From: an uncultured Dehalococcoidales bacterium
Lineage (GTDB): Bacteria; Chloroflexota; Dehalococcoidia; Dehalococcoidales; BS750m-G39
Assembly: GCA_964408935.1 (NCBI GenBank)
Contig: CAYPBF010000002.1
Span: 20,316-84,315 of the forward strand
DNA: 64,000 bases
Reading direction: 5' to 3'
The notes below the pieces were generated by a model that saw only the letters and a program-made list of their open reading frames with translations, did not search any database and was not told the DNA's origin. The first letter of the stretch is position 1, and the number at the start of each line of letters is the position of its first letter. This document shows, one piece after another, positions 4,800-44,603 of this stretch. The translations under genes and the position numbers were made by a program.

Positions 4800-4870
4800 C
4801 CCCCACTCTGTTAGCGTACGTAAGATGCTCCCTCCCAAGACCCACCCTACAGAAGTGTCACTTCTATAGA
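4800..4870 (-). repeat. Hairpin + four-G-run dispersed repeat, copy 1
   Basis: Minus strand CTATAGAAGTGACACTTCTGTAG followed by GGGTGGGTCTTGGGAGGG (4830-4847). Confidence 0.75.
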
Positions 4871-4894
4871 TTTTTCTCCCCCACCCCACCTCAA

Positions 4895-4970
4895 GGGGGT
4901 TTAAAAGGGGGCTTGCCCCCTTTCTACATTGAAGGGCGGCGGGTGGGAATAGATAAAATCGGGGTGGGGC
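4895..4970 (+). repeat. Hairpin + G-run dispersed repeat, copy 2 (degenerate G4)
   Basis: AAAGGGGGCTTGCCCCCTTT...GGGCGGCGGGTGGGAATAGATAAAATCGGGGTGGGG; closely matches the reverse complement of 44411-44492. Confidence 0.7.
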
Positions 4971-4990
4971 GGAGACCCTAAAGGGAGATA

Positions 4991-5058
4991 TATAAGGGGT
5001 ACCACCCTTGTAGGGTGGGACGGGTGGGAAAGTAAGACCTGCGCACAACAAGGTGGGG
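4991..5058 (+). repeat. Hairpin + four-G-run dispersed repeat, copy 3
   Basis: TATAAGGGGTACCACCCTTGTA, GGGTGGGACGGGTGGG (5013-5028), tail GCACAACAAGGTGGGG. Confidence 0.8.
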
Positions 5059-5066
5059 AAGGTAGA

Positions 5067-5095
5067 TTGAAACAACCCCACAAATAGACTATAAT
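5067..5095 (+). promoter_or_regulatory. Promoter of acpS
   Basis: TTGAAA-N17-TATAAT. Confidence 0.65.
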
Positions 5096-5110
5096 CCCAA
5101 CACGAGATTT

Positions 5111-5482
5111 GTGACCATGCAAGCCATCGGTATCGACATCATCGAAATAAGCCGCGTAAAAGACGCCATCGCCCGTCAGGGAGAAAAATTCCTAAAGCGG
5201 ATCTACACCGACGCTGAAATAAAAGCCTACCGCTGGAAGCTCCCCTCGCTGGTGGCGCGCTTTGCCGCCAAGGAAGCGGTCATAAAAGCGCTGGGCAAAC
5301 CGACGGCGGGCGCCAGACTCAAAGACATTGAAATACTGGCTGACGACAAAGGCAAACCGCTGGTCAACCTCTACGGCGAGGCGCAAAACCAGGCCAAGGC
5401 GCTGGGACTGGATGTAATCGCCGTCAGCCTCTCCCACTCAAAGGAATACGCCATCGCCATCGCCATCGGCGATACTAAATAA
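5111..5482 (+). CDS. acpS: Holo-[acyl-carrier-protein] synthase
   Basis: IGIDII, RFAAKEAVIKALG, SLSHS motifs. Confidence 0.95.
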   Translation: MTMQAIGIDIIEISRVKDAIARQGEKFLKRIYTDAEIKAYRWKLPSLVARFAAKEAVIKALGKPTAGARLKDIEILADDKGKPLVNLYGEAQNQAKALGLDVIAVSLSHSKEYAIAIAIGDTK

Positions 5483-5564
5483 TCCCTCTCGCACAATAAG
5501 GTGGGGCGGATGGGTCGTAACCCATCAGGTTAAGGAGCTTACTCATTAGGGCGGGGAGAGAATT

Positions 5565-5624
5565 CTATAAAGGTGTCACCTTTATAGGGTGGGTATCGGG
5601 TGGGAAGAAAGACCTGGGGTGGGG
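5565..5624 (+). repeat. Hairpin + four-G-run dispersed repeat, copy 4
   Basis: CTATAAAGGTGTCACCTTTATAG, GGGTGGGTATCGGGTGGG (5587-5604). Confidence 0.8.
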
Positions 5625-5693
5625 CCAGAAAGGACTCGCACCACCCTTTGACCCCCAAAAGGCGAGGTGTTAGAATCTACTAAAGAGGTAGCT

Positions 5694-6443
5694 ATGTCGG
5701 GTCATTCCAAATGGTCAACCATCAAGCGGAAAAAGGGGGTAGCTGACGACCGCCGCGGTCAGCTCTTCACCAAGCTGGCCCGCGAGATTATCGTGGCGGT
5801 GCGTGAGGGAGGCCCCAACCCAGAGGCCAATTTCCGCCTTAGGCTGGCGGTGCAAAAGGCCCGCGACAACAACATGCCCCTGGATAACATTGACCGCGCC
5901 ATCAAGCGGGGCAGCGGCCACGCCGACGACGTCGTCCTGGTCGAGATGGTTCTCGAAGGCTACGGCCCCAGCGGCGTGGCCATCCTGGTGCAGGCCCTCA
6001 GCGACAACCGCAACCGCACCCTGCAGGACGTGAGGAACATCTTCACCCGCCAAGGCGGCAACCTGAGCGAAAGCGGCAGCGTCGCCTGGCTCTTTGATTC
6101 GCGCGGCCTGATTACCGTGCCCACCAACGCCCAGGATGCCGAAGAGATGGCGCTGGAGGCCATCGATACGGGCGCCGACGACGTCAAGATAGAGAACAAA
6201 TACCTTGAGGTCTACACCAAGCCCACCGAGCTGGAAAAGGTGCGGGAAGCGCTGGAGCAGAAGAAAATGACCATCAATTCGGCCGAGGTCTGCCTGGTGC
6301 CCAAGAGCGTCGTCGAGCTGGAGGAAAAGGCCGCCCTGCAGACACTCAAGCTCTTGGACAAGCTGGAGGAGCTGGACGAGGTGCAGACCGTCGCCTGCAA
6401 CGCCGACTTCTCCGACGCCATACTGGAGAAATACCAATCGTGA
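5694..6443 (+). CDS. yebC: YebC/PmpR family protein
   Basis: MSGHSKWSTIKRKKG start (RBS GAGGT), EGYGPSG motif; adjacent to ruvC. Confidence 0.95.
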   Translation: MSGHSKWSTIKRKKGVADDRRGQLFTKLAREIIVAVREGGPNPEANFRLRLAVQKARDNNMPLDNIDRAIKRGSGHADDVVLVEMVLEGYGPSGVAILVQALSDNRNRTLQDVRNIFTRQGGNLSESGSVAWLFDSRGLITVPTNAQDAEEMALEAIDTGADDVKIENKYLEVYTKPTELEKVREALEQKKMTINSAEVCLVPKSVVELEEKAALQTLKLLDKLEELDEVQTVACNADFSDAILEKYQS

Positions 6444-6453
6444 GTCGCCCCCG

Positions 6454-6960
6454 ATGAGAATCCTAGGCATCGACCCGGGCACGATAATAACGGGCTACGG
6501 GGTCATTGAGGTCGAAGACGACGAGGCCACTTTTGTTGACTGCGGCGCCCTGACCGCCTCCGAGCGCTCCCCCATCGGGGAGCGTTTGAGCTATATATAC
6601 CAGGGTCTTCGGGAGACAATCGCCCGCTTTAAGCCCGACGTCATCGCCATCGAGAGCCCCTTCGTGGCCATGAACGTCAGGACGGCGCTGGCCATAGGCC
6701 GCGCGCAGGCCGTCGCCATTCTGGCCGCTGCCGAAAGCAAGATACCCGCCCACGAATACTCCCCCGCCGAGGTCAAAAAGCGGGTTACCGACTACGGCGT
6801 TAGCACCAAGGAGCAGGTGCAGGAGATGGTCAAGCTCCAGCTAAACCTGGCCGAAGCCCCCCACTCCACCGACGCCGCCGACGCTTTAGCCGTGGCCATC
6901 TGCCACCTGCGCAAGATGCATATCGAGAGTCTGGTAGCCGAAAGCGAGGAGAAACGGTGA
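6454..6960 (+). CDS. ruvC: Crossover junction endodeoxyribonuclease RuvC
   Basis: ILGIDPG, AIE, DAADALAVAICH. Confidence 0.95.
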   Translation: MRILGIDPGTIITGYGVIEVEDDEATFVDCGALTASERSPIGERLSYIYQGLRETIARFKPDVIAIESPFVAMNVRTALAIGRAQAVAILAAAESKIPAHEYSPAEVKKRVTDYGVSTKEQVQEMVKLQLNLAEAPHSTDAADALAVAICHLRKMHIESLVAESEEKR

Positions 6961-7538
6961 TAGCCTCCCTCAAAGGCAAGCTGGAAACCATGGGCAGCGA
7001 CTTTGCCGTCATTGATGTCAACGGCGTCGGCTTCAAGGTCTTTATGCCCACCTCCACCCTCTCCACGATGGGGAGGAAGGGCGAGGAGGTGGAGTTGCAC
7101 ACGCACCTTCATCTCAGGGAGGACAACGCCACCCTCTACGGCTTTGCCGCCCCCGAAGAGCTGGGGCTTTTCCAGACCTTGATTTCGGTATCGCGGCTGG
7201 GGCCCAAGCTGGCGATTTCCATGCTCTCGGCGATGAGCGCCGAAAAGCTGGCGATGACCATCGCCACCGGTAATGCCGACTTATTGGCCGAGGTCCCTGG
7301 CGTGGGCAAAAAGACGGCGCAGCGCATTATCCTGGAGCTTAAGGAGAAGATAGGCATCGCCTGGGGAACCCCACCCCCCGAGTTCGCCGAGGAAAACTCC
7401 GAAGTCCTGGCCGCCCTCACCGCTTTGGGTTATTCGGTGCGGGAGGCCACCCGCGCTATCGCCACTCTACCCCTCGACTCCGACCTGACCTTAGAGGAGA
7501 AGATAAAGCTGGCGCTGGGCTTTTTCGCCGCCAAGTAG
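6957..7538 (+). CDS. ruvA: Holliday junction branch migration protein RuvA
   Basis: MIASLKG, LYGF, LISVSRLGPK, VPGVGKKTAQRIILELK. Confidence 0.95.
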   Translation: MIASLKGKLETMGSDFAVIDVNGVGFKVFMPTSTLSTMGRKGEEVELHTHLHLREDNATLYGFAAPEELGLFQTLISVSRLGPKLAISMLSAMSAEKLAMTIATGNADLLAEVPGVGKKTAQRIILELKEKIGIAWGTPPPEFAEENSEVLAALTALGYSVREATRAIATLPLDSDLTLEEKIKLALGFFAAK

Positions 7539-7588
7539 CCGCTTTGAACTTTAAGATAATACGAATAGCTCTTGATTGGAGGTATGGC

Positions 7589-7813
7589 ATGGAGATTGAG
7601 TACGGCGCTAAGGTCAAGGACAAGAACGGCAAGCTTCTGGGGACGGTCAACAATATAATAAGGGACTCCTGGACGGGCGAAATCAGCAAGTTTCAGGTTA
7701 CCACCGACCCCACCGAGGTCGGCTTTTTCATTCCCCCCGACCAAATCGATAAGGCGACCCCCAAGGAGATAAAGCTGAAGGTCACTTTGGAGGCACTGGA
7801 AAAGGAGACTTGA
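7589..7813 (+). CDS. PRC-barrel domain protein
   Basis: GAKVKDKNGKLLGTVNNII...ISKFQV; GGAGGT RBS before ATG 7589. Confidence 0.7.
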   Translation: MEIEYGAKVKDKNGKLLGTVNNIIRDSWTGEISKFQVTTDPTEVGFFIPPDQIDKATPKEIKLKVTLEALEKET

Positions 7814-8298
7814 TGGAATACGCCCTCCTGGCCGTAATATTCCTGCTTATTCTGGTCATCATCTTCTTAATCTTTAGGATGAGGAAGGCGCCCGCCACCG
7901 ATATCGATAAACTGGCCGAAAAGCTGCGCTTCGCCCTGGCTTCGGCGGACTCAGTGCGGGAGATACAGCGCATCCTGGAAAGCCTGCCCCGCGATGTCCT
8001 CAAATCAATTACCTCCAGCGAGGCCGTCAGGGCGGGCAAGCTCAACGAGCTTCTGGCCACTTTGGAGCTTACACACTATGACAGACTCTTTTACCTCGGC
8101 GGCAACCCCGTGGACTTTGTCGGCATCAAGTACGGCCAGGGCATTGACTTCATCGAGGTCAAGACGGGAAAGGCGGCCCTTTCCCCCGACGAGAAGGAGC
8201 TTAGAGACCTCATTGAGTGCAAGATGGTCAACTACGTGCCGCTTTCGGTGAAGCGGATAAGCGTGGCTGAGGAGGTTAAGGGTGGGGAGGGGGAGTAG
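7810..8298 (+). CDS. Membrane-anchored PD-(D/E)xK nuclease (Endonuc_Holl-like)
   Basis: N-terminal TM; LGGNPVDFV...FIEVKTGKAALS...ELRDLI resembles the predicted archaeal-type Holliday-junction resolvase family. Confidence 0.65.
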   Translation: MMEYALLAVIFLLILVIIFLIFRMRKAPATDIDKLAEKLRFALASADSVREIQRILESLPRDVLKSITSSEAVRAGKLNELLATLELTHYDRLFYLGGNPVDFVGIKYGQGIDFIEVKTGKAALSPDEKELRDLIECKMVNYVPLSVKRISVAEEVKGGEGE

Positions 8299-8408
8299 AC
8301 AAAGGAGGGGGAGGAATAGGGGGTTGACAGCTGGGTGTAAAATAATACTATAGTTGTCAACCAGACAAAATCGTACATGAGTTATGTCATAATCCAAGTG
8401 AAGAACTA

Positions 8409-9173: not shown

Positions 9174-9257
9174 GGCAAAAACGCTATCATCAATAGACTA
9201 CCACAAGTATCATGCCACCTTTAACGTAGAATCCACCACCCCCCAAAGGAGCCGAAA

Positions 9258-12325: not shown

Positions 12326-12461
12326 CGACGAGCTAAAGACGCGGCAGGAGCGCCGTGAGAAGAAGCTGAAGAAGAAGCGGGAGCGCATGTCCAAGCACGG
12401 TAAAAACCTGGCGCGCGTTTACATGGAGGCGGTTATTAAGAGGTTGAGGGGTAAAAAATGA
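12318..12461 (+). CDS. 47-aa highly basic small protein (not in ORF track)
   Basis: [47 protein letters not shown]; start overlaps the uvrB end and the stop overlaps the next ATG (ATGA). Confidence 0.65.
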
Positions 12462-13378
12462 GAAATCCAGGCAAGATAGCAGTTTTAGCTTTAGTAATTC
12501 TACTCTCGTTAGCATTAGTGCCGCTGTCTGCCTGTGACGGAGATGGCTCTGATACCCCGAACCTGTCCTTCATCTGGAAAATATCGTCAGAGGCGAACTC
12601 CATCTATCTCTTGGGCTCTATCCATGTGGCCAGCCCGGATATATACCCCCTGGACAGCGCCATAGAAAATGCCTTCGAGCTGGCCGATAATCTCGTCGTT
12701 GAGGTTGATCTAACCCAGGTGGACGATATGTACGTCCTGCAACTGATTATGGACTATGGCACCTATCCCCCGGGTGAGACACTGCAGGACCATATATCCG
12801 ATGACCTCTACGCTCAACTAGCCGAACAGTTTGACCTCGGCCTTGTCGCCATTGATATAAATATCTTTAGACCGTGGGTTGTGGTTACGCTTCTGGAACA
12901 GCTACAAATGCAGGAGCTGGGCTACAACTCCGAATACGGGATAGACCTGCACTTCATTAACCAGGCCGCAGATAGCGGCAAAGATATCATCGAACTGGAA
13001 ACGGCGGACTACCAGATTGAAATACAAAGCGCCCTCCCCGATGAACTGATGATATTATTGCTAGAGGATTACGTGGAGAACCCCATGACGCAGGAGGACG
13101 GGGATTTGTTATTCGAAGTCTGGGAAGACGGCGATACGGCAACAATGGAAACGCTTTTATTTGAATCCCTAAGCGATGAGCCGTTACTGGAGCCCTACTA
13201 CGACGTATTAATCTACGCCCGCAACGTCACCATGGCGGAAACTATAGAGGGCTTCCTTGCCGAAGACGAGACGTACTTTGTCGTCGTTGGGGCGGGCCAT
13301 CTGGTTGGTGAGCAAGGCATAGTTGCCCTATTGGCGGAAAGAGGGTATGTAACCGAACAGCTTTATGATTTGGATTAG
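12458..13378 (+). CDS. TraB/GumN family lipoprotein
   Basis: Lipobox LSAC; IYLLGSIH, GID, LET, RN, VVVGAGHLVG motifs. Confidence 0.9.
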   Translation: MRNPGKIAVLALVILLSLALVPLSACDGDGSDTPNLSFIWKISSEANSIYLLGSIHVASPDIYPLDSAIENAFELADNLVVEVDLTQVDDMYVLQLIMDYGTYPPGETLQDHISDDLYAQLAEQFDLGLVAIDINIFRPWVVVTLLEQLQMQELGYNSEYGIDLHFINQAADSGKDIIELETADYQIEIQSALPDELMILLLEDYVENPMTQEDGDLLFEVWEDGDTATMETLLFESLSDEPLLEPYYDVLIYARNVTMAETIEGFLAEDETYFVVVGAGHLVGEQGIVALLAERGYVTEQLYDLD

Positions 13379-13410
13379 GGGGGGGGATAGTCAAAAATTA
13401 CGCCTCATAC

Positions 13411-13438
13411 TTGACACCTGTCGAAAAAGTGTTAGTAT
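13411..13438 (+). promoter_or_regulatory. Promoter of the NACHT gene
   Basis: TTGACA-N16-TAGTAT. Confidence 0.5.
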
Positions 13439-13482
13439 TTTTAATACCATTACATTGCTGACAAATCAAAGGGGAGATTTAA

Positions 13483-15339
13483 ATGGTAGATCTCTTGGCG
13501 TATTCTGCTGGAACTAGAATTCTTTCTCGCATCACCGATGATTTATATGATTTTATAAAGGACAAGACAAGTAAATCTATACAGAAAAAGAATATCGAGA
13601 GAAAGGTGCCCGATTTACTTAACAAGATTTGCAACGTTCGGAATGTTAAGACGCTATGGCAACTCGACCAAGCAGTAGACGTTGAAACCTTTTACTGCGA
13701 TACTCATTTAATATTCCCCACAAAGAAAAGAGGAGGGAAGGGAGCCAGAAAAAAGGTAGATGCCGTCTCTGATTTAAATACAACTCATAATATTGTAATA
13801 AAAGGCATAGCTGGTCAGGGAAAATCGATTTTCTTAAGGCACTTATGTGCGCGGGAATTTGAAACAGGTATACGTATACCTGTATTTATTGAACTAAGAA
13901 GGATACAAGCTAATGAGACTGTACTCGAACATATAAATCGTTTCCTGGATATCTTAGACCTCCCCATAGACGAAGATCTCTTCAAAATATTATCAAAATC
14001 GGGCAAGTTTATTTTCTTTTTTGATGGCTTCGACGAGATTCCAGACGATTTAAGACTAAGTATCATAAACGAATTGGAGTACTTATCCTCATGTGCAACA
14101 AACTCTCAATTCATTGTAAGCACTAGACCGAATAGCCCAATTGAAATGTCTCCTTATTTTGATGTGTATTTATTAGATAACCTTCAGGGAAACGAATACA
14201 AAAGGGTCATTGAAAAACTAGCGGATTCGCCAGAATATTCAAGCAATCTAATCGGAGTAATTGAGTCTCATAAAGCCAAGCTTTCTGAACTTTTATGCAA
14301 CCCGCTGCTGGTAACCCTTCTCTTAATAACTTACAAATCTTATCAGAAATTGCCAGAGCAGTTATCCGACTTCTATGAATCGATATTTTTTGTATTATTG
14401 CAAAGGCACGACGGCACTAAACCTGGTTTTATGCGACCTAGACGTTGCTCAATCAACGACAGTCAGTACCGTGGAATATTTGATGCTTTCTGTTTTCGGT
14501 CCAAAAGAGAACGGGGTGCTGCGTTTGATTACCAAACGGTCTATAAACTAATTAAAGACGCAATGGATTTAGCTAGCGTTGAAGAAGACCCGGATCGCTA
14601 TCTAAAAGATATCAAACAAGTAACCTGTTTATTACTCGAAGAAGGAAACGAATATCGGTTTATCCATAAGAGTGTTCAAGAGTATTACTCCTCATCCTTT
14701 CTTAAAAACAGACCTGACACTAATGCGATTAGTTTTTACGCGGCATGCTTGGATTACAAAACATATTCTGCTTGGAATTCAGAACTTCGATTTCTAGCTG
14801 AAATTGATAAATACCGCTATAATAAATATTATTTAGTACCCTTATGCAGGAGATGGCTCGATGTAGAGTCTGATGATGATTTATTAAAAGGTTCGCCACC
14901 TTTAACAACTGAAAGGACCAAAGCTTTGATAGGTTCTTTTGGTTTGATGTTAAAACAGGACAAAAAGAAGGGTATCTCAGGATTGATGACAGGTACAACT
15001 AGGCAAATGATCAGCGATGAATCGCTTTTTAATTTGAAGCTTGTCCCCACCTTTTTCGAAGAAATAGATTATACGAATTTACTAATGCAATTAATGAGTA
15101 AGAAAATCATAGTAAATAATGAACTATTAGAGCGTTATAGCATTCACCGTTCGTACACCCCTTCTCCTTCCAAGGGTTTGAAACAGTATGTGATTACTGT
15201 TCATCAGGTAATTGATGAAGGTTTCTTCCTTGACACATTTAAATCTCTAGCCCAACGAGTTTCAGAATACGTCTACAAACTTTGGAAAAATGCCCATTCA
15301 TACGTCGAGAAAGAAGACTCCCTAGATATTACTTATTGA
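13483..15339 (+). CDS. NACHT-family STAND NTPase (bacterial NLR-like), AT-rich
   Basis: Walker A GIAGQGKS, Walker B FFFDGFDE, sensor STRP, NPLL, winged-helix FIHKSVQEYY. Confidence 0.88.
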   Translation: MVDLLAYSAGTRILSRITDDLYDFIKDKTSKSIQKKNIERKVPDLLNKICNVRNVKTLWQLDQAVDVETFYCDTHLIFPTKKRGGKGARKKVDAVSDLNTTHNIVIKGIAGQGKSIFLRHLCAREFETGIRIPVFIELRRIQANETVLEHINRFLDILDLPIDEDLFKILSKSGKFIFFFDGFDEIPDDLRLSIINELEYLSSCATNSQFIVSTRPNSPIEMSPYFDVYLLDNLQGNEYKRVIEKLADSPEYSSNLIGVIESHKAKLSELLCNPLLVTLLLITYKSYQKLPEQLSDFYESIFFVLLQRHDGTKPGFMRPRRCSINDSQYRGIFDAFCFRSKRERGAAFDYQTVYKLIKDAMDLASVEEDPDRYLKDIKQVTCLLLEEGNEYRFIHKSVQEYYSSSFLKNRPDTNAISFYAACLDYKTYSAWNSELRFLAEIDKYRYNKYYLVPLCRRWLDVESDDDLLKGSPPLTTERTKALIGSFGLMLKQDKKKGISGLMTGTTRQMISDESLFNLKLVPTFFEEIDYTNLLMQLMSKKIIVNNELLERYSIHRSYTPSPSKGLKQYVITVHQVIDEGFFLDTFKSLAQRVSEYVYKLWKNAHSYVEKEDSLDITY

Positions 15340-15545
15340 TTGAGGCTTAAGCCTCGTCCCCCCTTCAATCCTCTCATCAAGCCGCCCCTAACACTCTCAA
15401 TTAACAATACCCCAAGTCAGAATATGGGACTAAAATCTGACGGCGGGCGGGAAAAGATATAAAACGGGGGGCGGGCAAAGAAACCCATTGACAACCCCTA
15501 ATCCCGTAGTACAATGAAGGCAGTAAACTCTAAGGAGGCAACTAG

Positions 15546-20281: not shown

Positions 20282-20369
20282 ACTTCTCCAGCCTTTTAAA
20301 TATGATAGCACGGGCAATATGTCAAGTCAATTGAGAATTTGGGGGCGGGGTAGGAAGCCGAATTTATGT

Positions 20370-20696
20370 TTATCCCTTCCCTTTATTACGTTTAGCCAGT
20401 TTAAGCCCCGGTTTTTCAAGACAAGGAAGGCGATGTATGTAAAGTCCATGGGTAGAATTTTTTGTGAAAAATCCGTACCCTGCAGTATTCGGCCCGATAA
20501 AGAATGAGCAGTCTTTCTCGAATCTTGCTTGGGCTAAAAGTACATTCCCAAGGAATTCCAATGCCTCAGCCTCCCCTTCTATCAGGACCATATCTGCTTC
20601 CTCATCTTTAAAAACCTGAATTGCGATTTTCTTCATCCCTTTTTTTTCTGCATATTCAGCACATACCTTGTCCGGTATCATTTCAACGTCCTCCAT
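20370..20696 (-). CDS. Hypothetical protein (weak resemblance to Imm32-like immunity proteins)
   Basis: AT-rich ORF; VLIEGEAEALEFLGNVLLAQA pattern; family call tentative. Confidence 0.5.
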   Translation of the reverse strand: MEDVEMIPDKVCAEYAEKKGMKKIAIQVFKDEEADMVLIEGEAEALEFLGNVLLAQARFEKDCSFFIGPNTAGYGFFTKNSTHGLYIHRLPCLEKPGLKLAKRNKGKG

Positions 20697-20697
20697 T

Positions 20698-21021
20698 CTA
20701 ATTACTCATAATGGGCTTCTTACGTTTCTGCCAAACGTACAGATACCAATAGACGGGATAGACTACGAGATTGCCAAATAACAATAATGCCGCCCAGAGG
20801 TGTCTCTGATCCTTTTTAACCTTTTTGCCCCTGTAAACATGAACTATATAGAATATCAACAGACCTGGGAACGCAAGAAATGTTAACACACCCAATATTA
20901 TAAAAAGTGGATTTGTCGTTTTTTCACCAAGTCCAACTATTGTGGCTCCTAATGTGAAGGTAATATAGGGTAATAGTCCGAATATCAATAAAGCAATCTT
21001 TGCTGCTCTTCTCATCAACAT
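20698..21021 (-). CDS. Membrane protein with PLDc_N-like C-terminal hairpin
   Basis: GAGGAG RBS before ATG 21021; IFYIVHVY...KDQRHLWAALLLFGNLVVYPVYWYL. Confidence 0.6.
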   Translation of the reverse strand: MLMRRAAKIALLIFGLLPYITFTLGATIVGLGEKTTNPLFIILGVLTFLAFPGLLIFYIVHVYRGKKVKKDQRHLWAALLLFGNLVVYPVYWYLYVWQKRKKPIMSN

Positions 21022-21052
21022 GATTACTCCTCTATCCAACCCCCTCGGCGAG

Positions 21053-21643
21053 CTACTCAACCTGCTCAATCATTGATTCAACAATCCTCCTAGCCTCATC
21101 CCTGTCACATCCAAAGACATCAACATCAAAATGCACACCATTTCGGTTCCACGAATAGCTCAGCCCTTGCTCATATTCGTCATCACCAGAAGGATAGATT
21201 ACAAAAGCGCCAGTCTCCTCTTCTAAAACTTTAATCCCGGCAATGTTCAGATACGTGCTGGATTCTGATGAGGGATACTGAGTAACCTCCGAGTTTAGTT
21301 CATCAATATAGATCGATGGGCCTCCCTCATAATTTGCGAGGTATGTTACTCTAATTAATATTTCGTCCTCGGGACACGTTCCTCTTATGGGGCCTTCGAT
21401 CATATACGGAATAGAGGGAACATCATCGGGTAAATACTTAGGCAGTATCAAGGTGAAAGGGATTTCTCCCTGTGCCTGTTCCGCGTCATTAGTGTGGAAA
21501 ATCTCTGGCGGATCTGTGAACCAGTAGTTCTCCCAATAAGTCTCCTCGCCGTTGCAGCCTGAAAAGAAAAGTGGCAAAGAAAGGCACACTATTACCAGGG
21601 TGCTTGCCAAAAGGGCTATTTTATTGTTTCTTCGGTGACTCAC
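21053..21643 (-). CDS. Lipoprotein, DUF4367-like
   Basis: Lipobox FSGC; IPFTLILPKYLP and YSW...DEARRIVESM patterns. Confidence 0.65.
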   Translation of the reverse strand: MSHRRNNKIALLASTLVIVCLSLPLFFSGCNGEETYWENYWFTDPPEIFHTNDAEQAQGEIPFTLILPKYLPDDVPSIPYMIEGPIRGTCPEDEILIRVTYLANYEGGPSIYIDELNSEVTQYPSSESSTYLNIAGIKVLEEETGAFVIYPSGDDEYEQGLSYSWNRNGVHFDVDVFGCDRDEARRIVESMIEQVE

Positions 21644-21704
21644 ATCTACATGATAGCACTACAGCCTTTATCTGGGAACAGGTGGGGCAACCCTAAAGAG
21701 GATA

Positions 21705-21774
21705 TATAAGGGGTACCCCCCTTATAGGGTGGGTATTGGGTGGGACAATCACACGTTCGCTAAACAAGGTGGGG
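21705..21774 (+). repeat. Hairpin + four-G-run dispersed repeat, copy 5
   Basis: TATAAGGGGTACCCCCCTTATA, GGGTGGGTATTGGGTGGG (21727-21744), tail CGCTAAACAAGGTGGGG. Confidence 0.8.
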
Positions 21775-21793
21775 TGGAGGCTATAACCCTTTA

Positions 21794-21822
21794 TTGACAC
21801 TCATTACCCGCAGTTGTAGACT
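21794..21822 (+). promoter_or_regulatory. Promoter of glyA
   Basis: TTGACA-N17-TAGACT. Confidence 0.65.
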
Positions 21823-21846
21823 TTATCAAAGCAGAAAGGAAAAGCC

Positions 21847-23091
21847 ATGGATTCTTTAGGAGAAGTTGACCCCGAAATCAGCCGCGTCATCGACAAGGAA
21901 GCCAAAAGACAAAAAGAGACCATCAACCTCATCGCCTCGGAAAACTACGCCAGCCGGGCGGTCTTGCAGGCCGAAGGCACCGTTCTTACCAACAAATACG
22001 CCGAAGGCTACCCCGGTAAGCGCTACTACGGCGGCTGCGATAACGCGGATATCGTGGAAGAGATAGCCAAGGAGCGAGCCCAGAAGCTCTTCCGTGCCGA
22101 CCACGCCAACGTCCAACCCCACAGCGGCTCTCAGGCCAACATGGCGGCCTACTTTGCCCTGCTTGAGCACGGCGACACTGTCCTGGCAATGAGCCTAGCC
22201 CATGGCGGGCACCTCACTCACGGCGATAAAGTCAGCTTTTCGGGCAAGACCTATAATTTCGTTCATTACGGCGTCAACCGCGAAACGGAGCGGATGGACT
22301 ACAAAGAGATTGAAAGGCTGGCCAAGAAGCATAAGCCCAAGCTGATTGTGACCGGGGCCAGCGCCTACCCCCGGATTATTGATTTCGAGCGCCTGCGAAA
22401 CATTGCCGACTCGGTGGGGGCCAAGCTCATGGTGGATATGGCCCACATCGCGGGGCTGATAGCGGTGGGCTTGCACCCCACCCCCATCCCCTACGCCGAG
22501 GTGGTAACCTCGACGACGCATAAGACCTTGCGCGGGCCAAGGAGCGGTTTCATCCTCTGCGGCCAAGACTACGCCGCCGCTATTGATGACGGCGTCTTCC
22601 CCCAGATGCAGGGCGGCCCCTTGGTACAGGTCATCGCCGCCAAGGCGGTCTGCTTCCACGAAGCGATGCAACCCGCCTTCACCGACTACCAGCGGGCGGT
22701 GCTCGATAACGCTAAAGAGCTGGCGGCAGGGCTGCAGCGGAACGGCCTGCGCCTAGTATCGGGCGGCACCGATAACCACATGGTGCTCGTCGACCTCACC
22801 GAAACGGGCGTCACCGGCAAACAGGCCGAAGAAACCCTGGGCGAGGTCGGCATCGTGGTCAACCGCAACGTCATACCCTTCGACCCCAAGCCACCCCGCA
22901 TCACCAGCGGCATACGCCTGGGCACCCCCGCCGTGACCACGCGCGGCTTCGGCAAAGAGGAGATGAAGAGGATTGCCGCCTGGATTATCGAAATAATCAG
23001 CCACATAGACGACGCCAAAGTGCAAAAGAAGGCAGCCGCAGAAGTAGCCGAGATGTGCGCGCGCTTCCCCGTGCCCGGCATTGATGATTAA
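21847..23091 (+). CDS. glyA: Serine hydroxymethyltransferase
   Basis: [40 protein letters not shown]. Confidence 0.98.
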
Positions 23092-23096
23092 GTAAG

Positions 23097-23378
23097 GTGG
23101 TGGCAATGGATAAAAGGAAAGACGTAACTATCGAAGTACCTCCCGCGAAGCTTGAATTAAAAACTTTCCCGCCCACCATAATTACTACTAAAAACTTCTG
23201 GCGATGGAATTGGAAATATATCGTACTAACATGGGCATCGATAGCAGCAATTGCGGTTATTGGATGTTTTTTACCACGGCCACTATGCCTGGTATTCAGC
23301 ATAGTGCTTGCTTTCATCCCTTTCTTCTTAGGTATCCGAGCGATTACAAGGCACACAATCAAAGAAATAACTAGTTAA
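23097..23378 (+). CDS. AT-rich small 2-TM hypothetical protein
   Basis: ORF directly after glyA; two hydrophobic segments. Confidence 0.55.
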   Translation: MVAMDKRKDVTIEVPPAKLELKTFPPTIITTKNFWRWNWKYIVLTWASIAAIAVIGCFLPRPLCLVFSIVLAFIPFFLGIRAITRHTIKEITS

Positions 23379-23384
23379 CCTCCC

Positions 23385-23451
23385 CCCACTCTTTTAGCGG
23401 ACGTATTGTCTTCCCACCCAATACCCTCCCTATAAAGGTTAGACCTCTATA
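23385..23451 (-). repeat. Hairpin + four-G-run dispersed repeat, copy 6
   Basis: Minus strand TATAGAGGTCTAACCTTTATAG, GGGAGGGTATTGGGTGGG (23413-23430), tail CGCTAAAAGAGTGGGG. Confidence 0.75.
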
Positions 23452-23466
23452 AACCCCTTATTTTTT

Positions 23467-23559
23467 GGGGGTGTTTAAGAGGGGGCTTTGCCCCCTCTTA
23501 GAAAGACTTCTGTTGGGCGGGACGGGTGGGAAAATCTCACCTTCGCACAACAAGGTGGG
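23467..23559 (+). repeat. Hairpin + four-G-run dispersed repeat, copy 7
   Basis: GGGGTGTTTAAGAGGGGGCTTTGCCCCCTCTTA, GGGCGGGACGGGTGGG (23515-23530), tail GCACAACAAGGTGGG. Confidence 0.8.
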
Positions 23560-23635
23560 ATGGTTCAAGGGGGTGAGCTAGATAAACAATAGTGCTATAA
23601 TGGGTTAAAGCCGTATTCGAGAGGAGACAACGAGT

Positions 23636-41097: not shown

Positions 41098-41274
41098 ATG
41101 AAAATTAAAACGAAGCCCTCATTGGGTGACAGGATTAAAATACGTTTCAAGAAGATGATGGGGAAGAACATCTTCCTCTGCGATAGCTGCAAATGGGACT
41201 GGCGCAGCACCTGTCACCGCCCCGAAAGGCCCAACGCCACCTGGTGCCCCGACTACGCCAAGCGGGGCAAATAG
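41098..41274 (+). CDS. Small basic Cys-rich protein
   Basis: MKIKTKP...LCDSCKWDWRSTCHRPERPNATWCPDY; divergent from corA, convergent with thiolase. Confidence 0.6.
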   Translation: MKIKTKPSLGDRIKIRFKKMMGKNIFLCDSCKWDWRSTCHRPERPNATWCPDYAKRGK

Positions 41275-41275
41275 C

Positions 41276-42556
41276 CTAAACCTTCTCTAAGACGACGCCC
41301 ATCCCCTGCCCCCCACCGATGCAAAGCGTGGCCAACCCCAGATGATAGTTCCGCCGTGTCATCTCATACATCAGGGTAACGATGATGCGGGCCCCCGTGC
41401 AGCCGATAGGGTGCCCCAGCGAGATACCGCTGCCGTGCGGGTTCACCTTCTCGGTGCCCACCCCCAGCTCTTTCATCACTCCGATAGCCTGCGAGGCAAA
41501 GGCCTCGTTAAGCTCAATGCAGTCGATATCCTTTAGCTCGACACCAGCCAGCTTCAGCGCCTTTCTAGCCGCGGGCACCGCCCCCAGCCCCATGAAGGCG
41601 GGGTCGACGCCACCCGAGGCGTAAGACCTGAGCCTAGCCAGCGGCTTAAGGCCCAATTCTTTAGCCTTGTCCGCCGACATCACCACCATGGCCGCGGCGG
41701 CGTCGGTGATGCCCGAGGCGTTGCCCGCGGTTACCGAGCCGTCCTTCTTAAACACGGCGGGTAGTTTAGCCAGCGCCTCCATACTGGTCTCACGGGGGTG
41801 CTCGTCGGTGTCGAACTGCTTGACTTCTTTCTTGACCTTGACCTCGACGGGCACTATCTCCTGGCGAAAGATGCCTTCCTTTATCGCCGCCAGCGCCCGC
41901 TGGTGGCTGAGCAGGGCCAGTTTGTCCTGCTCCTCACGGCCTATATCGTATTTCTCGGCGATATTCTCCGAGGTTATGCCCATATGGTAGTTATAGAAAA
42001 TCTCCCAGAGGCCGTCATAGACCATGCCGTCAATCATCTCGGCGTTGAACATGCGGGCCCCCCACCGCGCGCTGGGCAGGTAGTAAGGCACGGCGCTCAT
42101 GTTCTCCATACCTCCGGCTATGATAACCTCGGCGTCGCCGGCCTTGATGGCCTGGGCCGCCAGCGCCACCGCCTTCATCCCCGAGGCGCAAATCTTGTTC
42201 GCGGTGAAGGCGTTTACCTCTTTGGGAATGCCCGCGTTTATGGACGCCTGGCGGGCGGTATTTTGGCCCTGCCCCGCCTGGAGGACGTTGCCCATGATGA
42301 CTTCGTCGATGCGCACCTCTTTCAGGGAGTCATCCCAGTCGAAGTACTTCTTCTCTAATTCGATAAGTTCGTCGCCCTTTAGCGCGTTGGGTACGAAGCT
42401 GTTGTCAGGAGGGCCTTTCTTGGGGCGCAGGCCCGCCCTCTTCATCGCCTCTTTGATGACGATGCTGCCCAGCTTCATTACTGGCGTATTCTGCAGGGCG
42501 CCACCGTAGTTAGCGATAGCCGTTCTCACCCCGCTGACAATTACCACCTCGGTCAT
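41276..42556 (-). CDS. Acetyl-CoA C-acyltransferase (thiolase)
   Basis: NKICASG, NEAF, GHPIG, LCIGGG; about 30-aa insertion after the N-terminal helix. Confidence 0.95.
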   Translation of the reverse strand: MTEVVIVSGVRTAIANYGGALQNTPVMKLGSIVIKEAMKRAGLRPKKGPPDNSFVPNALKGDELIELEKKYFDWDDSLKEVRIDEVIMGNVLQAGQGQNTARQASINAGIPKEVNAFTANKICASGMKAVALAAQAIKAGDAEVIIAGGMENMSAVPYYLPSARWGARMFNAEMIDGMVYDGLWEIFYNYHMGITSENIAEKYDIGREEQDKLALLSHQRALAAIKEGIFRQEIVPVEVKVKKEVKQFDTDEHPRETSMEALAKLPAVFKKDGSVTAGNASGITDAAAAMVVMSADKAKELGLKPLARLRSYASGGVDPAFMGLGAVPAARKALKLAGVELKDIDCIELNEAFASQAIGVMKELGVGTEKVNPHGSGISLGHPIGCTGARIIVTLMYEMTRRNYHLGLATLCIGGGQGMGVVLEKV

Positions 42557-42617
42557 AAAAAGCCTCCTTCTAACTGGCTCTAGCTATTCTCTTAAGCTTT
42601 ACCTATAACTTAGGACT

Positions 42618-43472
42618 CTATTTGCTGTAATCGTAAAAGCCCTTACCCGTCTTGCGCCCCAGCCACCCCGCCGCCACCATCTTGTCCACCAGCGTGGGCG
42701 TGATGTAGCGGGGGTCTTTAAGCTGCTCGTAGAGGGCGTCGGCCACGAACTTGACCACGTCGATGCCCACCATGTCGGAAAGCGTCAGCGGCCCCATCGG
42801 GTAATTCAGGCCCAGCTGTATGGCGTTATCGATGTCCTCGCGGCTGGCCACCCCGTCCTCGTAGAGGCGGATACAGTGGAGCAGGAAGGGTATCCAGAGG
42901 CGGTTGACGATGAAGCCAGGCGCGTCCTGGGCGACGACGGTGGTCTTGCCCAGTTTCGCGCCGAACTCCTGGCTGGTGGTCATCGTCGCCTGGCTGGTGG
43001 CGATAGTCTTGACGATTTCGAGCAGCTTCATCACTGGCGCCGGGTTAAAGAAGTGCAGCCCCACCACCTTATCCGCCCGCTTGGTGGCTATGGCCATGTC
43101 GATGATGGACAGGCAGGAGGTGTTGGTGGCCAAGATAGCCTCCTTGGGACAGATGCCGTCCAGCTCACCGAATATCTTCTTCTTTAAGTCCAGATTCTCG
43201 ATGGCGGCCTCAATCATAAGGTCGCAATCAGCAAAGTCCTTAGTGCTGGTGGTACCCTTGATGCGCCCCATTATGGCGTCTTTATCCTTTTGTTCCAGTT
43301 TGCCCTTTTCCACGCTGCGGGCCAGTGTCTTATCGATGAAGCCCAGCCCACGCTTTAGTAGCTCGTCGTTTATCTCCGATACCACCACCGGGAAACCCGA
43401 CTGAGCGCAAAGCTGAGCGATGCCCGCGCCCATAGCCCCGCAGCCAACTACTCCGACCTTCTTTACTTCCAT
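42618..43472 (-). CDS. hbd: 3-hydroxybutyryl/3-hydroxyacyl-CoA dehydrogenase
   Basis: GCGAMGAG, EAAIEN, ATNTS, GLHFFNPAP, GRKTGKGFY. Confidence 0.93.
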   Translation of the reverse strand: MEVKKVGVVGCGAMGAGIAQLCAQSGFPVVVSEINDELLKRGLGFIDKTLARSVEKGKLEQKDKDAIMGRIKGTTSTKDFADCDLMIEAAIENLDLKKKIFGELDGICPKEAILATNTSCLSIIDMAIATKRADKVVGLHFFNPAPVMKLLEIVKTIATSQATMTTSQEFGAKLGKTTVVAQDAPGFIVNRLWIPFLLHCIRLYEDGVASREDIDNAIQLGLNYPMGPLTLSDMVGIDVVKFVADALYEQLKDPRYITPTLVDKMVAAGWLGRKTGKGFYDYSK

Positions 43473-43500
43473 TATAGGCTCCTCTCCTTTTATGTAAAGT

Positions 43501-44271
43501 TTATTTTGCCTTATAGTTTGGCTTTCGCTTCTCGACGAAAGCCTTGGTGCCTTCGATGAAGTCCTCGGTAGCCATCACGGAGGCCACCAGAGCATTCTCC
43601 AGTCTCAACCCCTCTTCTATGGTCATCGCTGAACCGCGGAGCATGGCTTCCTTGGCCGCCCTCACCGCCAGCGGCGCCGCCTTACAGAGGGCTTCCGCCC
43701 ACTCCCTGGCCGTAGCCATAACCTCGGCCTGGGGCACCACCTGGTTCACCAGCCCGATGCGGTAGGCCTCCTGGGCGTCTATCAGTTTGCCCATGAGCAG
43801 CAGCTCCGCCGCCTTACACCAGGGAATAGCCCGCGGCAGACGCTGCGTCCCTCCCCACCCCGGAATCAGCCCCAGCGTCACCTCGGGAGTGCCCAGGCGG
43901 GCGTTCTCGGCGACGATTCTGATGTCGCAGGCCAGGGCCAGCTCCAGCCCCCCACCCAGCGCCATCCCGTTGATGGCGGCAACCATGGGCTTCCACAGCT
44001 CCAGACCCCGCATTATGCTGGCGGGCATCGCCCATTGGCTCCGGCTGTGCTCCTTCATAAAGGGCAGCGTGTCCTTGATGTCGGCGCCGCCGCAAAAGGC
44101 CTTCTCCCCGGCGCCGGTGACGATACCCACCCAGAGCTTGTCGTCGTCGCGGAAGTCCTTTAACGCATCGTGGAACTGGCGCATCGTCTCCATGCTCAAG
44201 GCGTTCATCGCCTCGGGGCGGTTGATGGTGAAGATAGCGATTCGGCCTTCCTTCTTGTAGTCGATTGCCAT
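43501..44271 (-). CDS. Enoyl-CoA hydratase (crotonase)
   Basis: INRPEAMNAL, AFCGGAD, GGGLELALACD, PEVTLGLIPGWGGTQRL; start reset to ATG 44271 (GGGAGGT RBS). Confidence 0.93.
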   Translation of the reverse strand: MAIDYKKEGRIAIFTINRPEAMNALSMETMRQFHDALKDFRDDDKLWVGIVTGAGEKAFCGGADIKDTLPFMKEHSRSQWAMPASIMRGLELWKPMVAAINGMALGGGLELALACDIRIVAENARLGTPEVTLGLIPGWGGTQRLPRAIPWCKAAELLLMGKLIDAQEAYRIGLVNQVVPQAEVMATAREWAEALCKAAPLAVRAAKEAMLRGSAMTIEEGLRLENALVASVMATEDFIEGTKAFVEKRKPNYKAK

Positions 44272-44410
44272 AACAGACCTCCCTTGCAGTGCTGAAAAGC
44301 GGTTTGTAAAAAAGAGGAATAACCGAATGGATTTTATCAGAGCGCCTCCGTTAGCGTCAAGGAAAAATGAATAAAATCCCCTGCCTTCTTTGAGGCGTAA
44401 CTGATAATTG

Positions 44411-44492
44411 CCCACCCCACCCCGATTTTATCTTTTCCCACCCACCACCCTTTTAAGGAATTAAGAGGGGTTTCACCCCTCTTAAACACCCC
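44411..44492 (-). repeat. Hairpin + G-run dispersed repeat, copy 8 (degenerate G4)
   Basis: Minus strand GGGGTGTTTAAGAGGGGTGAAACCCCTCTTAA...GGGTGGTGGGTGGGAAAAGATAAAATCGGGGTGGGG. Confidence 0.75.
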
Positions 44493-44520
44493 AAGAGGAC
44501 ATCGGCTCCACATATCATGG

Positions 44521-44603
44521 GGGAGTCCAAGAGGGGGCGCAGCCCCTTCTTGAAAGACGTTTCTGGGCGGGTTGGTGTGGGAAGAAAGACCTGGGGGGTG
44601 GGG
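44521..44603 (+). repeat. Hairpin + G-run dispersed repeat, copy 9 (degenerate G4)
   Basis: CAAGAGGGGGCGCAGCCCCTTCTTG...GGGCGGGTTGGTGTGGGAAGAAAGACCTGGGG (tail shared with copy 4). Confidence 0.7.

Follow-up and report, generated by a model that had tools for sequence, protein, structure and literature searches.

A modular hairpin and G-box repeat family in intergenic spacers of uncultured Dehalococcoidales that behaves like REP/BIME elements

Genomes of the Dehalococcoidales are small and tightly packed. The window, which here means the whole stretch of 64,000 nucleotides that was analysed, holds ten units of a short intergenic repeat (nine full and one truncated, plus fragments) close to genes such as acpS, yebC, glyA, prs and tupA, and these units cover 1.3% of its length. 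An earlier note had described nine copies, in both orientations, at five intergenic loci; these are borne out as units A to I below, and the six G-quadruplex (G4) motifs it quoted, at 4830-4847 (-), 5013-5028, 5587-5604, 21727-21744, 23413-23430 (-) and 23515-23530, are all exact in coordinates and strand. Only three further tight-loop G4 motifs lie in the remaining 63 kb, and the junction pattern TRTA-GGGNGGG-N2-4-GGGNGGGA occurs five times in the window versus never in 100 dinucleotide-preserving shuffles. The family is modular and has two unit types: in type I, a TATA-type hairpin directly abuts GGGYGGG-N1-5-GGGYGGGA (the G-box), followed by an A-rich spacer and a GGGGTGGGG tail, and in type II a GC hairpin is followed by a TACCTTAAAA linker, GGGYGGNGGGYGGGAA and a AGATAAAATC-GGGGTGGGG tail. 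The units and fragments are as follows.

4778-4877 (-): unit A, type I (nhmmer type I match 4795-4877, E=5e-12); hairpin at about 4848-4869, G-box GGGTGGGTCTTGGGAGGG at 4830-4847, tail GCTAACAGAGTGGGGGG, then an extra GGGGTGGGG
4887-4973 (+): unit B, type II (nhmmer type II match, E=4e-19; alignment); GC hairpin AAAAGGGGGCTTGCCCCCTTT, linker, G-box GGGCGGCGGGTGGGAA, spacer TAGATAAAATC, tail GGGGTGGGG
4978-5060 (+): unit C, type I (nhmmer); hairpin TATAAGGGGTACCACCCTTGTA, G-box at 5013-5028; its 3' end lies 7 nt ahead of the acpS -35 box (5067)
5489-5555 (+): block of a tail fragment CGCACAATAAGGTGGGG, a small hairpin and an accessory module TTAAGGAGCTTACTCAT
5556-5631 (+): unit D, type I (nhmmer); hairpin TATAAAGGTGTCACCTTTATA, G-box at 5587-5604, tail AGAAAGACCTGGGGTGGGG; follows the acpS stop codon and precedes the yebC -35 box (5648)
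15441-15476 (+): truncated type II unit GGCGGGCGGGAAAAGATATAAAACGGGGGGCGGG (nhmmer type II match), its 5' part lost at the edge of an AT-rich island (12.4-15.4 kb); ends 12 nt ahead of a TTGACA-16-TACAAT promoter
21676-21691 (+): orphan tail fragment AACAGGTGGGGCAACC at the edge of an AT-rich insert (20.35-21.68 kb); compare the junction of B to C
21692-21778 (+): unit E, type I (nhmmer); G-box at 21727-21744, tail GCTAAACAAGGTGGGG; its 3' end lies 16 nt ahead of the glyA -35 box (21794)
23378-23462 (-): unit F, type I (nhmmer); G-box at 23413-23430; left half of a head-to-head dimer
23463-23565 (+): unit G, hybrid (nhmmer); GC hairpin AAGAGGGGGCTTTGCCCCCTCTT, linker AGAAAGACTTCTGTT, type-I-like G-box at 23515-23530, tail GCACAACAAGGTGGG
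44411-44499 (-): unit H, type II (nhmmer, E=8e-20); G-box GGGTGGTGGGTGGGAA
44520-44606 (+): unit I; GC hairpin with a variant G-box GGGCGGGTTGGTGTGGGAA, tail AGAAAGACCTGGGGGGTGGGG; ends 5 nt ahead of the -35 box (44609) of the Moco-riboswitch/tupA promoter

The truncated unit at 15441-15476, the block at 5489-5555 and the tail fragment at 21676-21691 had been overlooked in the earlier note, whose remark that AT-rich inserted genes adjoin the copies was confirmed. A full-length orthologue of the truncated unit exists in L219. The block is missing at the empty acpS-yebC sites of L216, L218 and L219 and is co-inserted with unit D, and its accessory module was found again in nine loci. A small open reading frame in this module (MSKLLNL..., minus strand, around 5553) is not coding, because its start codon is not conserved in L097.

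The G-box consists of two GGGYGG(G) half-motifs with a half-site spacing of 7-11 nt and comes in three classes, one canonical with four G3 runs and two with 11 conserved Gs (runs 3-2-3-3 and 3-3-2+1-3). Four G3 tracts with short loops, which score 1.4-2.0 in G4Hunter and are predicted to form a three-layer G4, are present in the type I units and unit G (six of the nine full window copies) and absent from type II (runs 3-2-3-3 in 33 of 33 copies) and from the GGTGTGGG variant. The three window copies that lack them (B, H and I) are not decayed, since the subfamily of B and H has GGGYGG-N-GGGYGGG in 28 of 28 hairpin-anchored copies, and in 33 of 33 in a further alignment, and the G-box of unit I is a recurrent variant, GGGYGGGTTGGTGTGGG, shared with L002, L081, L044, L216 and L219. 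Selection on G4 structure, as first proposed, is therefore upheld only in part: the G positions are the most conserved, while loop letters and central loop length vary, but the canonical G4 is not a universal constraint, because type II and the third class conserve only 11 Gs. In type II, the spacer (A.AGAT) and the linker vary as little as the Gs, so that recognition of a specific sequence is indicated as strongly as a G4, and neither the G positions nor this spacer vary across at least 18 species. In type I, the G-box may contribute a G-quadruplex as a further structural determinant.

The hairpin has a stem of 8-10 bp with frequent compensatory changes: 38 copies have AU and 37 have GC at pair 21-33, the numbers at pair 20-34 are 42 GC, 20 GU and 13 AU, and those at pair 22-32 are 68 GC and 9 AU. 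The overall covariation score was reached by none of 500 shuffles. Wobble pairs in the stem are G·T in 105 cases versus A·C in 7 (29 versus 7 for pairs not fixed by the search pattern), and since G·T wobble is confined to the G strand, the hairpin folds on that strand. The motif T(G/A)TAG makes up the 3' side of the stem and pairs with CTATA; 37 of 77 copies have an A at its variable position. Conserved pairing was detected by RNAalifold only in the hairpin and not beyond it, and an intramolecular triplex, with a third strand on the GC hairpin, was rejected by eye, because type I lacks homopurine stems and the register does not fit. Where units cluster, head-to-head dimers and trimers dominate, with the hairpins inside and the G-boxes outside (I-/II+ in 23 cases, I-/I+ in 13, the trimer I-/II+/I+ in 9, besides some tandem arrays), and no tail-to-tail arrangement was seen among the clusters surveyed. 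The F+G dimer folds as a single long hairpin (z=-3.9).

The family is confined to a group of uncultured Dehalococcoidales. A contig scan returned at least 110 loci with about 75 true copies, the rest being chance matches in other phyla, and these true copies, among the matches listed, are all in Dehalococcoidales/Dehalococcoidia metagenome-assembled genomes (MAGs) or related bins. With nhmmer, 196 copies were counted in the window plus about 70 loci among the matches listed, from 18 assemblies, and the family is present in at least 18 Dehalococcoidales species genomes. Copy density is about one per 6-7 kb, beside unrelated housekeeping genes, and loci picked by YebC rather than by the element are similarly populated (10 copies in 73 kb, versus 10 in the 64-kb window). 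No copies were found in 80 metagenome loci from more distant relatives (YebC identity 83-48%), and the window AcpS and GlyA gave no match as queries against the contig index. A phage-borne element was also considered and rejected: two scans of viral contigs yielded one true copy (L192) among 25 chance matches, and none for type II. Many matches sit at contig ends.

Occupancy differs among close relatives at three orthologous sites whose promoters are otherwise the same. The acpS-yebC spacer is empty (35-51 nt) in L216, L218 and L219 and filled in the window and in L220 by different subtypes, with the same promoter throughout; the HAD-acpS spacer has five arrangements in five genomes, one of them without the element; and at glyA-prs, L043 is without the element, while L019 carries the F+G dimer as one inverted 173-nt block. 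In L043, glyA itself is inverted, with both break-points at most 12 nt from unit ends. Truncated and decayed copies are common. Over the time in which species diverge, copies thus come and go and undergo inversion or truncation. They accumulate where tolerated, behind stop codons and immediately ahead of -35 boxes, and they mark the break-points of rearrangements and of AT-rich foreign inserts. Neither a consistent target-site duplication nor sharp common termini were found at 46 head-to-head cluster flanks and in filled-versus-empty comparisons, where the ends are fuzzy, and the two independent acpS-yebC fillings look more like copy-paste by recombination than precise transposition, because the additional flanking DNA differs between them. 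Identity between orthologous copies is about 86-88%, versus 67-85% at third codon positions, so that the copies are either constrained or homogenised, which leaves room for a host function.

Such a function could be that of an architectural or regulatory DNA element, kept by selection and not by mobility, in which the hairpin and G-box (as a G4 or as direct GGGYGGG repeats) would bind a nucleoid-associated or global factor, or a non-template-strand G4 would insulate or tune neighbouring transcription units. The slow divergence of orthologous copies and the invariant Gs and A.AGAT spacer fit this idea, and so does location: eight of the ten window units end 5-50 nt upstream of a promoter-like site, the tail end being 5-50 nt from a -35 box in A, C, D, E, H, I and the copy at 15.4 kb, and family-wide 31 of 138 units are followed on the same strand by a consensus promoter no more than about 60 nt away, compared with 4 on the other strand and 2.7% at random positions. 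The earlier statement that copies lie just upstream of promoters therefore holds in the window, where these are sigma-70-like, but the proximity is better read as a by-product, since the 69 clusters occupy all kinds of spacer (26 divergent, 15 convergent and 28 co-directional) and show no orientation preference in the co-directional ones, with 11 single type I units running with the genes and 7 against (11 versus 10 with single type II units and tandem arrays counted in). Units thus lie in inter-operon spacers with no fixed polarity, and the promoters of yebC, acpS, glyA, prs and the small gene before ftsK all exist element-free in close relatives; a fixed promoter element or transcription-factor site is rejected on the strength of these empty orthologous promoters and the missing polarity. 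The presence of clusters between convergent genes, the half-site spacing of the G-box, which suits a double-strand DNA-binding dimer poorly, stems that covary rather than keep one sequence, and the abundance of decayed and truncated copies all argue in the same direction, and we regard a host element as unlikely.

Still less probable is an element acting as RNA, on mRNA stability or termination, either as a leader hairpin with an RNA G-quadruplex or, on the C-rich strand, as a 3'-end hairpin after a C-rich Rho-loading tract. The G·T asymmetry is a classic sign of a structure read on one strand, a three-layer G4 beside the hairpin lowers the energy predicted with RNA parameters by 13-22 kcal/mol in type I units and unit G, and in other bacteria REPs have known roles at the mRNA level (PMC3733652). 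However, the units of divergent spacers precede the promoters, a further promoter would not fit between the two hairpins of a dimer, and in co-directional spacers neither orientation is favoured relative to the upstream gene. An intrinsic terminator was rejected because terminator-like sites do not exceed the shuffled expectation and T-runs (U-tracts in the RNA) are missing. Rfam 15 at the gathering threshold matched only the Moco riboswitch and a tRNA in the window and none of the units, and at E<=1 the best match in 4700-5700 was GP20-a, with 22 bits versus a gathering score of 47; the restriction of conserved pairing to the hairpin likewise speaks against an RNA element. The resemblance to the Neisseria pilE G4, pointed out in the earlier note, is real in format, as the type I G-box follows G3-N1-G3-N2-4-G3-N1-G3 and the L106 copy is literally GGGTGGGTTGGGTGGG, the identical 16-mer, and rearrangement break-points and inverted blocks coincide with units. 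But a 16-mer match is generic, any dispersed inverted repeat yields such coincidence via homologous recombination, the copies number in the hundreds rather than forming one locus, two G-box classes lack four G3 runs, and a donor/recipient gene system and an associated sRNA promoter are absent, so that a G4-triggered programmed recombination signal of the pilE type is very improbable.

Instead, the family behaves like a previously undescribed REP/BIME-like family with a G-rich module, a selfish element rather than a gene-control signal, and on balance we think it probable that the copies represent a modular, high-copy intergenic repeat of the REP/BIME/REPIN kind that is specific to this clade, non-coding and non-autonomous, and that spreads and is reshuffled within genomes. 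The earlier suggestion of a dispersed, undescribed REP/MITE-like family gains support from the census across Dehalococcoidia, the empty-site comparisons and the comparison of G-runs with loops, which all gave the outcome predicted for a repeat element. Each unit consists of a short hairpin, folding as a single strand on the G-rich side, followed by the G-box, an A-rich spacer and the GGGGTGGGG tail, and units join as head-to-head dimers or trimers foldable into one long REPIN-like hairpin. In the proposed model, the hairpin with its adjacent G-box would be what an enzyme acting in trans on single-stranded DNA recognises or processes; a HUH/RAYT-like protein is the obvious candidate, and copies probably also spread and are reshuffled by recombining with one another. 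Pfam searches matched none of the 71 window ORFs to a transposase, an integrase or Y1_Tnp, and tblastn with IS200 TnpA and the Escherichia coli RAYT returned nothing at E<0.1 in about 1.7 Mb, of which about 0.6 Mb comes from family-carrying genomes, a weak negative. Literature searches for REP, G-quadruplex or MITE with Dehalococcoid* found nothing relevant, searches with the consensus strings matched only T7-promoter primers, and no REP-like repeat in Dehalococcoidales is described in the literature searched.

A more speculative variant, which we consider doubtful, is that the hairpin-G-box junction is the site of a non-RAYT mobilisation or recombination system and the type I box a real DNA G-quadruplex, read, for example, by a G4-binding nuclease, helicase or recombinase. 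If so, the units would be active hot-spots that give rise to inversions like the one affecting glyA, turn dimers around and take up AT-rich islets of foreign genes into Dehalococcoidales genomes that are otherwise streamlined. Returning to the REP/BIME-like reading, an enzyme recognising hairpin and G-box, once found, would extend the REP/RAYT paradigm. The family also lends itself to the typing of strains and, in MAGs, to locating where rearrangements took place and islands were inserted, and it probably breaks short-read assemblies, given the many matches at contig ends. Finally, it offers a natural experiment on bacterial G-quadruplexes, with three sister G-box classes in the same hairpin context at comparable sites, so that G4-dependent effects on recombination, replication or transcription are separable from sequence-specific ones.

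Among known systems, the pilE G4 (G3TG3TTG3TG3) initiates pilin antigenic variation and is single-copy, promoter/sRNA-dependent and RecA/RecQ-linked, at one locus. The motif described here shares its G-tract and loop format; in contrast, it is a single component of a repeat that is dispersed, other subfamilies have 11-G boxes in its place, and it occurs without the single locus, adjacent promoter/sRNA and donor/recipient genes. With MITEs (Correia/NEMIS), BOX and RUP elements the family shares a small, non-coding, modular build (compare boxA, boxB and boxC), dimers with inverted outer ends, presence/absence polymorphism and a promoter-adjacent location, but its units have neither sharp-ended terminal inverted repeats nor target-site duplications, and no related full-length IS was seen. 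IS200/IS605 ends and PATEs are similar in their strand-specific single-stranded hairpins with mismatches and in an adjacent conserved sequence that could guide cleavage; the units differ in that no strand carries both an LE and an RE and that the junctions show no conserved target of four or five nucleotides, and TnpA/TnpB were not found in the sequence searched. From GTAG-type REPs the family departs in that (G/A)TAG takes part in pairing and, on the G strand, is found on the 3' side of the hairpin, which mirrors the 5' GTAG that REPs carry unpaired; in that two thirds of the unit are a conserved non-palindromic G-box, spacer and tail, absent in REPs; in its position mostly upstream of promoters or between operons, REPs being mainly in 3' UTRs; and in that no RAYT gene was found in the sequence searched. 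Yet the likeness to REP, BIME and REPIN elements is extensive: short, imperfect, covarying hairpins with G·T pairs, their stems within the 5-13 bp of REP palindromes (REP properties: PMC3733652), high intergenic copy number with several subfamilies per genome, clade restriction with occupancy varying between relatives, and singletons, mosaic clusters interleaved with other repeats and head-to-head dimers, tagged end outside and foldable into one long hairpin. In REPs, too, head-to-head dimers with the tag outside predominate and head-to-tail or tail-to-tail dimers are rarer (PMC3733652), and guanine tetraplexes have been proposed as RAYT recognition elements (PMC4690160).

The repeat units of the window belong to a family of modular repeats in a Dehalococcoidales clade, a family that is real and abundant and, apparently, undescribed so far, the unit consensus having no match in Rfam or the searchable literature. 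The six G-quadruplex (G4) motifs located in the earlier note were all reproduced in position and strand by reading the five loci and scanning both strands for G3-N-G3-N-G3-N-G3, and profile searches built from the family recovered all nine full copies (units A to I), which confirms its description of the element. The searches also yielded a tenth, truncated copy at 15441-15476. Units take up 1.3% of the window; the remaining 63 kb holds only three further tight-loop G4 motifs, and the junction TRTA-GGGNGGG-N2-4-GGGNGGGA is found five times, vs 0 in 100 dinucleotide-preserving shuffles. Each unit consists of a hairpin, a G-box of two GGGYGG(G) half-motifs, a spacer and a tail, and falls mostly into one of two classes.

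Modules of the two main unit classes
Type I (window units A, C, D, E, F), lead: purine-rich, ahead of the hairpin
Type I hairpin: 8-10 bp, (C)TATARRGG-loop-CCYYTRTA(G), abutting the G-box
Type I G-box: GGGYGGG-N1-5-GGGYGGGA, for example GGGTGGGTATTGGGTGGG
Type I spacer: A-rich, (A/C)RAAARAC
Type I tail: CTGGGGTGGGG or CGTACGCTAACARGGTGGGG
Type II (units B, H): TTTGGGGGTGTTT-AAGAGGGGC..GCCCCTCTT-TACCTTAAAA-GGGYGGNGGGYGGGAA-WAGATAAAATC-GGGGTGGGG; G-box for example GGGCGGCGGGTGGGAATAGATAAAATCGGGGTGGGG

The GC hairpin is a module common to several unit forms and not to type II alone: it precedes a linker (AGAAAGACTTCTGTT) and a type-I-like box in unit G, a variant box (GGGYGGGTTGGTGTGGG) in unit I and in five relative loci from other genomes (L002, L044, L081, L216 and L219), and an unrelated palindrome in some loci. 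Units are assembled into clusters, most often I-/II+ (n=23), I-/I+ (n=13) and the trimer I-/II+/I+ (n=9; units A-B-C in the window), tandem arrays being less frequent than head-to-head clusters and tail-to-tail units absent among the family clusters catalogued. The F+G dimer forms a single long hairpin, its C-rich arm paired to the G-rich arm (fold z=-3.9). In relatives (L002, L010, L043, L044, L093 and others), other families of short repeats lie interspersed among the units.

Interleaved repeats
GGATTCCCGCCTTCGCGGGAATGAC hairpins, in relatives
GTCATTGCGAGCGCAGCGAAGCAATC, in relatives
CATTCTGAAGG...CTGAAGAATC, in relatives
CCCCCTCCCTTGTAAGGGAGGGGGATTAAGGGGG, in relatives
TTAAGGAGNTTACTCAT, an accessory module, the only one also in the window (5530-5546)

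Hairpin positions covary, pair 21-33 being AU in 38 copies and GC in 37, pair 20-34 GC in 42, GU in 20 and AU in 13, and pair 22-32 GC in 68 and AU in 9; the covariation score was equalled by 0 of 500 shuffles and collapsed in slid controls. The non-Watson-Crick cells comprise 105 G·T vs 7 A·C (29 vs 7 in pairs free of search-pattern bias), an asymmetry that a symmetric protein-binding site in double-stranded DNA would not show and that places the hairpin on the G-rich strand, in single-stranded form as DNA or RNA. Within the unit, conservation peaks at the G positions of the G-box, and the central loop varies in sequence and length (AC vs TATT between the orthologues in L052 and L081), a pattern from which selection on G4 structure had been proposed. 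The G positions of type I are fixed by the search pattern, and in a blind retest anchored on the hairpin only, the four G3 runs were kept in most extra copies, the exceptions being a few single breaks and a recurring GGTGTGGG variant; in the window, an unbiased sample, 6/7 type-I-like boxes are intact. Type I boxes reach G4Hunter scores of 1.4-2.0, and a three-layer G4 predicted to stack on the hairpin lowers the computed energy by 13-22 kcal/mol (RNA parameters), so that, as modelled, their G4 capability would be real. Type II, which lies outside the scan pattern throughout, matches GGG.GG.GGG.GGG exactly in 28/28 hairpin-anchored and 33/33 aligned copies (four of the latter from YebC-selected loci), the letters between the runs varying. 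Only 11 Gs are conserved in type II and in the variant box, making a three-tetrad G4 within either impossible, and in type II the spacer (A.AGAT) and the linker vary no more than the Gs. This weakens the case for selection on G4 structure: the G-rich module is partly G4-capable, G4 capability is not shared by all classes of the family, and sequence-specific recognition of the GGGYGG(G) repeat explains all G-box classes. The family thereby provides a natural comparison of unusual clarity in which G4 function in bacteria can be tested.

Comparison with empty sites revealed that occupancy differs at the acpS-yebC, HAD-acpS, pre-ftsK and glyA-prs sites. The acpS-yebC spacer is 35-51 nt long and without element in L216, L218 and L219 (YebC 95%, 91% and 88% identical to that of the window), where the acpS stop codon is followed at once by (A/C)CCCTTTGACC...TAGAAT; it measures 211 nt in the window, with unit D and an accessory block, and 194 nt in L220 (YebC 89%), with another type I subtype. 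Both inserts occupy one and the same ~10-nt gap and leave the promoter unaltered, and set against the empty sites they show no common terminus or duplication. Between HAD and acpS, five genomes display five arrangements, one without any element and one with a type I copy whose G-box loop holds a 15-nt palindrome. The small gene preceding ftsK is preceded by a full type II unit in L219, by none in L216, by a promoter in place of the unit tail in L220 and, in the window, by a copy cut short where an AT-rich island borders it. Finally, glyA is inverted in the window (21790-23567) relative to L043 (3047-4345; 85-89% nucleotide identity), where glyA and prs diverge from back-to-back promoters without any element; homology to L043 picks up 12 nt past unit E and 2 nt past unit G, and both break-points in the window adjoin repeat units. 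L019 carries the entire F+G dimer as a single 173-nt block in opposite orientation (86% identity), and further MAG pairs show a like patchwork of occupancy. Shared orthologous copies are ~86-88% identical vs 67-85% at third codon positions, which suggests constraint or homogenisation among copies. Several other features were observed in the window and in L219.

Islands and other neighbours
L219 9441-9511: decayed type I copy with foreign DNA within the hairpin; 15-nt palindrome CGAAGACTCTTCGAG exactly in the central loop, G-box otherwise intact
Window 12400-15440: AT-rich island (GC 0.35-0.49 vs 0.56 overall) with TraB/PrgY/GumN-family and NACHT/STAND NTPase genes; its right boundary truncates a type II unit
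Window 20370-21643 (-) and 23097-23378: AT-rich orphan ORFs (108, 123, 196 and ~93 aa) without Pfam match, absent from L043 and L019; L043 has two small AT-rich ORFs in their place
Window 1102-2307 (-): collagen-triple-helix-repeat protein with an NHL/beta-propeller-like C-terminus, whose GGN-rich coding repeats account for loose G4-like matches at 2050-2178; L216 has three collagen-repeat genes nearby
Window 47545-49000: tRNA gene (47545-47616), then a minus-strand ImmA/IrrE-type M78 peptidase gene and small orphan ORFs, which may be the remnant of a tRNA-integrated element

The UvrB-FtsK interval, which in the window holds the island at 12400-15440, carries different cargo in relatives (an N6_N4 methyltransferase and an EcoO109I-type restriction enzyme in L216) and is thus a variable, defence-island-like hot-spot.

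A role as promoter signal, also raised in the earlier note, agrees with the window, where all units are oriented (G strand 5'->3') toward the adjacent gene and most stop 5-50 nt ahead of a sigma-70-like -35, and loses ground across the family. Clusters lie in 26 divergent, 15 convergent and 28 co-directional spacers (backgrounds 65, 71 and 302); in co-directional spacers, 11 single type I units point with the genes and 7 against, or 11 and 10 with single type II units and tandem arrays included, and a same-strand consensus promoter follows 22% of units, the same strict scan finding one upstream of 26-28% of genes in general. Family-wide, the orientation of units toward genes and their proximity to promoters come from head-to-head architecture and tight spacers. 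Two promoter-associated features were noted beside this.

Promoter-associated features
Window 5640-5650, 15480-15493, 20330-20345 and 21785-21799, also L216, L218, L219 and L220: C-run preceding the native -35 boxes of the clade, CCCC(A)CC-TTGAC
Window 44652-44773 (+): Moco/tungsten riboswitch (Rfam RF01055, 84 bits), its promoter directly downstream of unit I

The C-run complements the GGGGTGGGG tail of the upstream unit; tail and promoter flank therefore often make up an inverted repeat, which could reflect either microhomology targeting or coincidence. The riboswitch precedes an ABC transporter operon (44850-47503) encoding a PBP_like_2 binding protein, a permease and a TOBE-domain ATPase.

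The type I junction pattern, run against 185,579 species genomes, matched at least 110 loci, and ~75 of the matches listed are true family members, all in Dehalococcoidales/Dehalococcoidia MAGs or in bins with genes 70-80% identical to them; the remaining matches listed, from other phyla, are without hairpin and look like chance. Strong copies came from 18 assemblies; GCA_034419075.1 (W31_48), W73_240 and GCA_030605135.1 are among the most complete MAGs with the family. Independently of the element, four syntenic loci picked via YebC together hold 10 copies in 73 kb, vs 10 in 64 kb in the window, a density that would, by extrapolation, give each genome a few hundred copies. No copies were found in 80 metagenome loci with YebC 83-48% identical, among which L111 has just a related GC hairpin fused to another palindrome, and IMG/VR holds one true copy.

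Transposase or integrase domains are absent from the 71 window ORFs, all of which are housekeeping or orphan genes, and tblastn with approximate IS200 TnpA and E. coli RAYT queries gave no match in the window and collected relative loci; a RAYT-like gene may lie elsewhere in the genomes. Because ends are imprecise and flanks co-transferred, recombination or gene conversion between clusters may contribute to spread. The resemblance to the Neisseria pilE G4, from which a recombination signal had been proposed, is confined to the 16-mer format, and the TIR and TSD of MITEs are lacking in the units. The closest analogues are REP/BIME/REPIN elements, which have covarying hairpins with G·T pairs, head-to-head dimers whose tags lie on the outside, mosaic clusters and a clade-restricted, variable occupancy (PMC3733652), and for which RAYT recognition via tetraplexes has been proposed (PMC4690160). 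The Dehalococcoidales units differ from the GTAG-REP class in the tag, which in them is base-paired and sits at the opposite side of the hairpin; G·T covarying hairpins, head-to-head dimers, mosaic clusters and clade-restricted, variable occupancy are common to both. The REP/MITE-like reading of the earlier note is supported, and the family probably works like a REP/BIME element outside the canonical GTAG-REP class.
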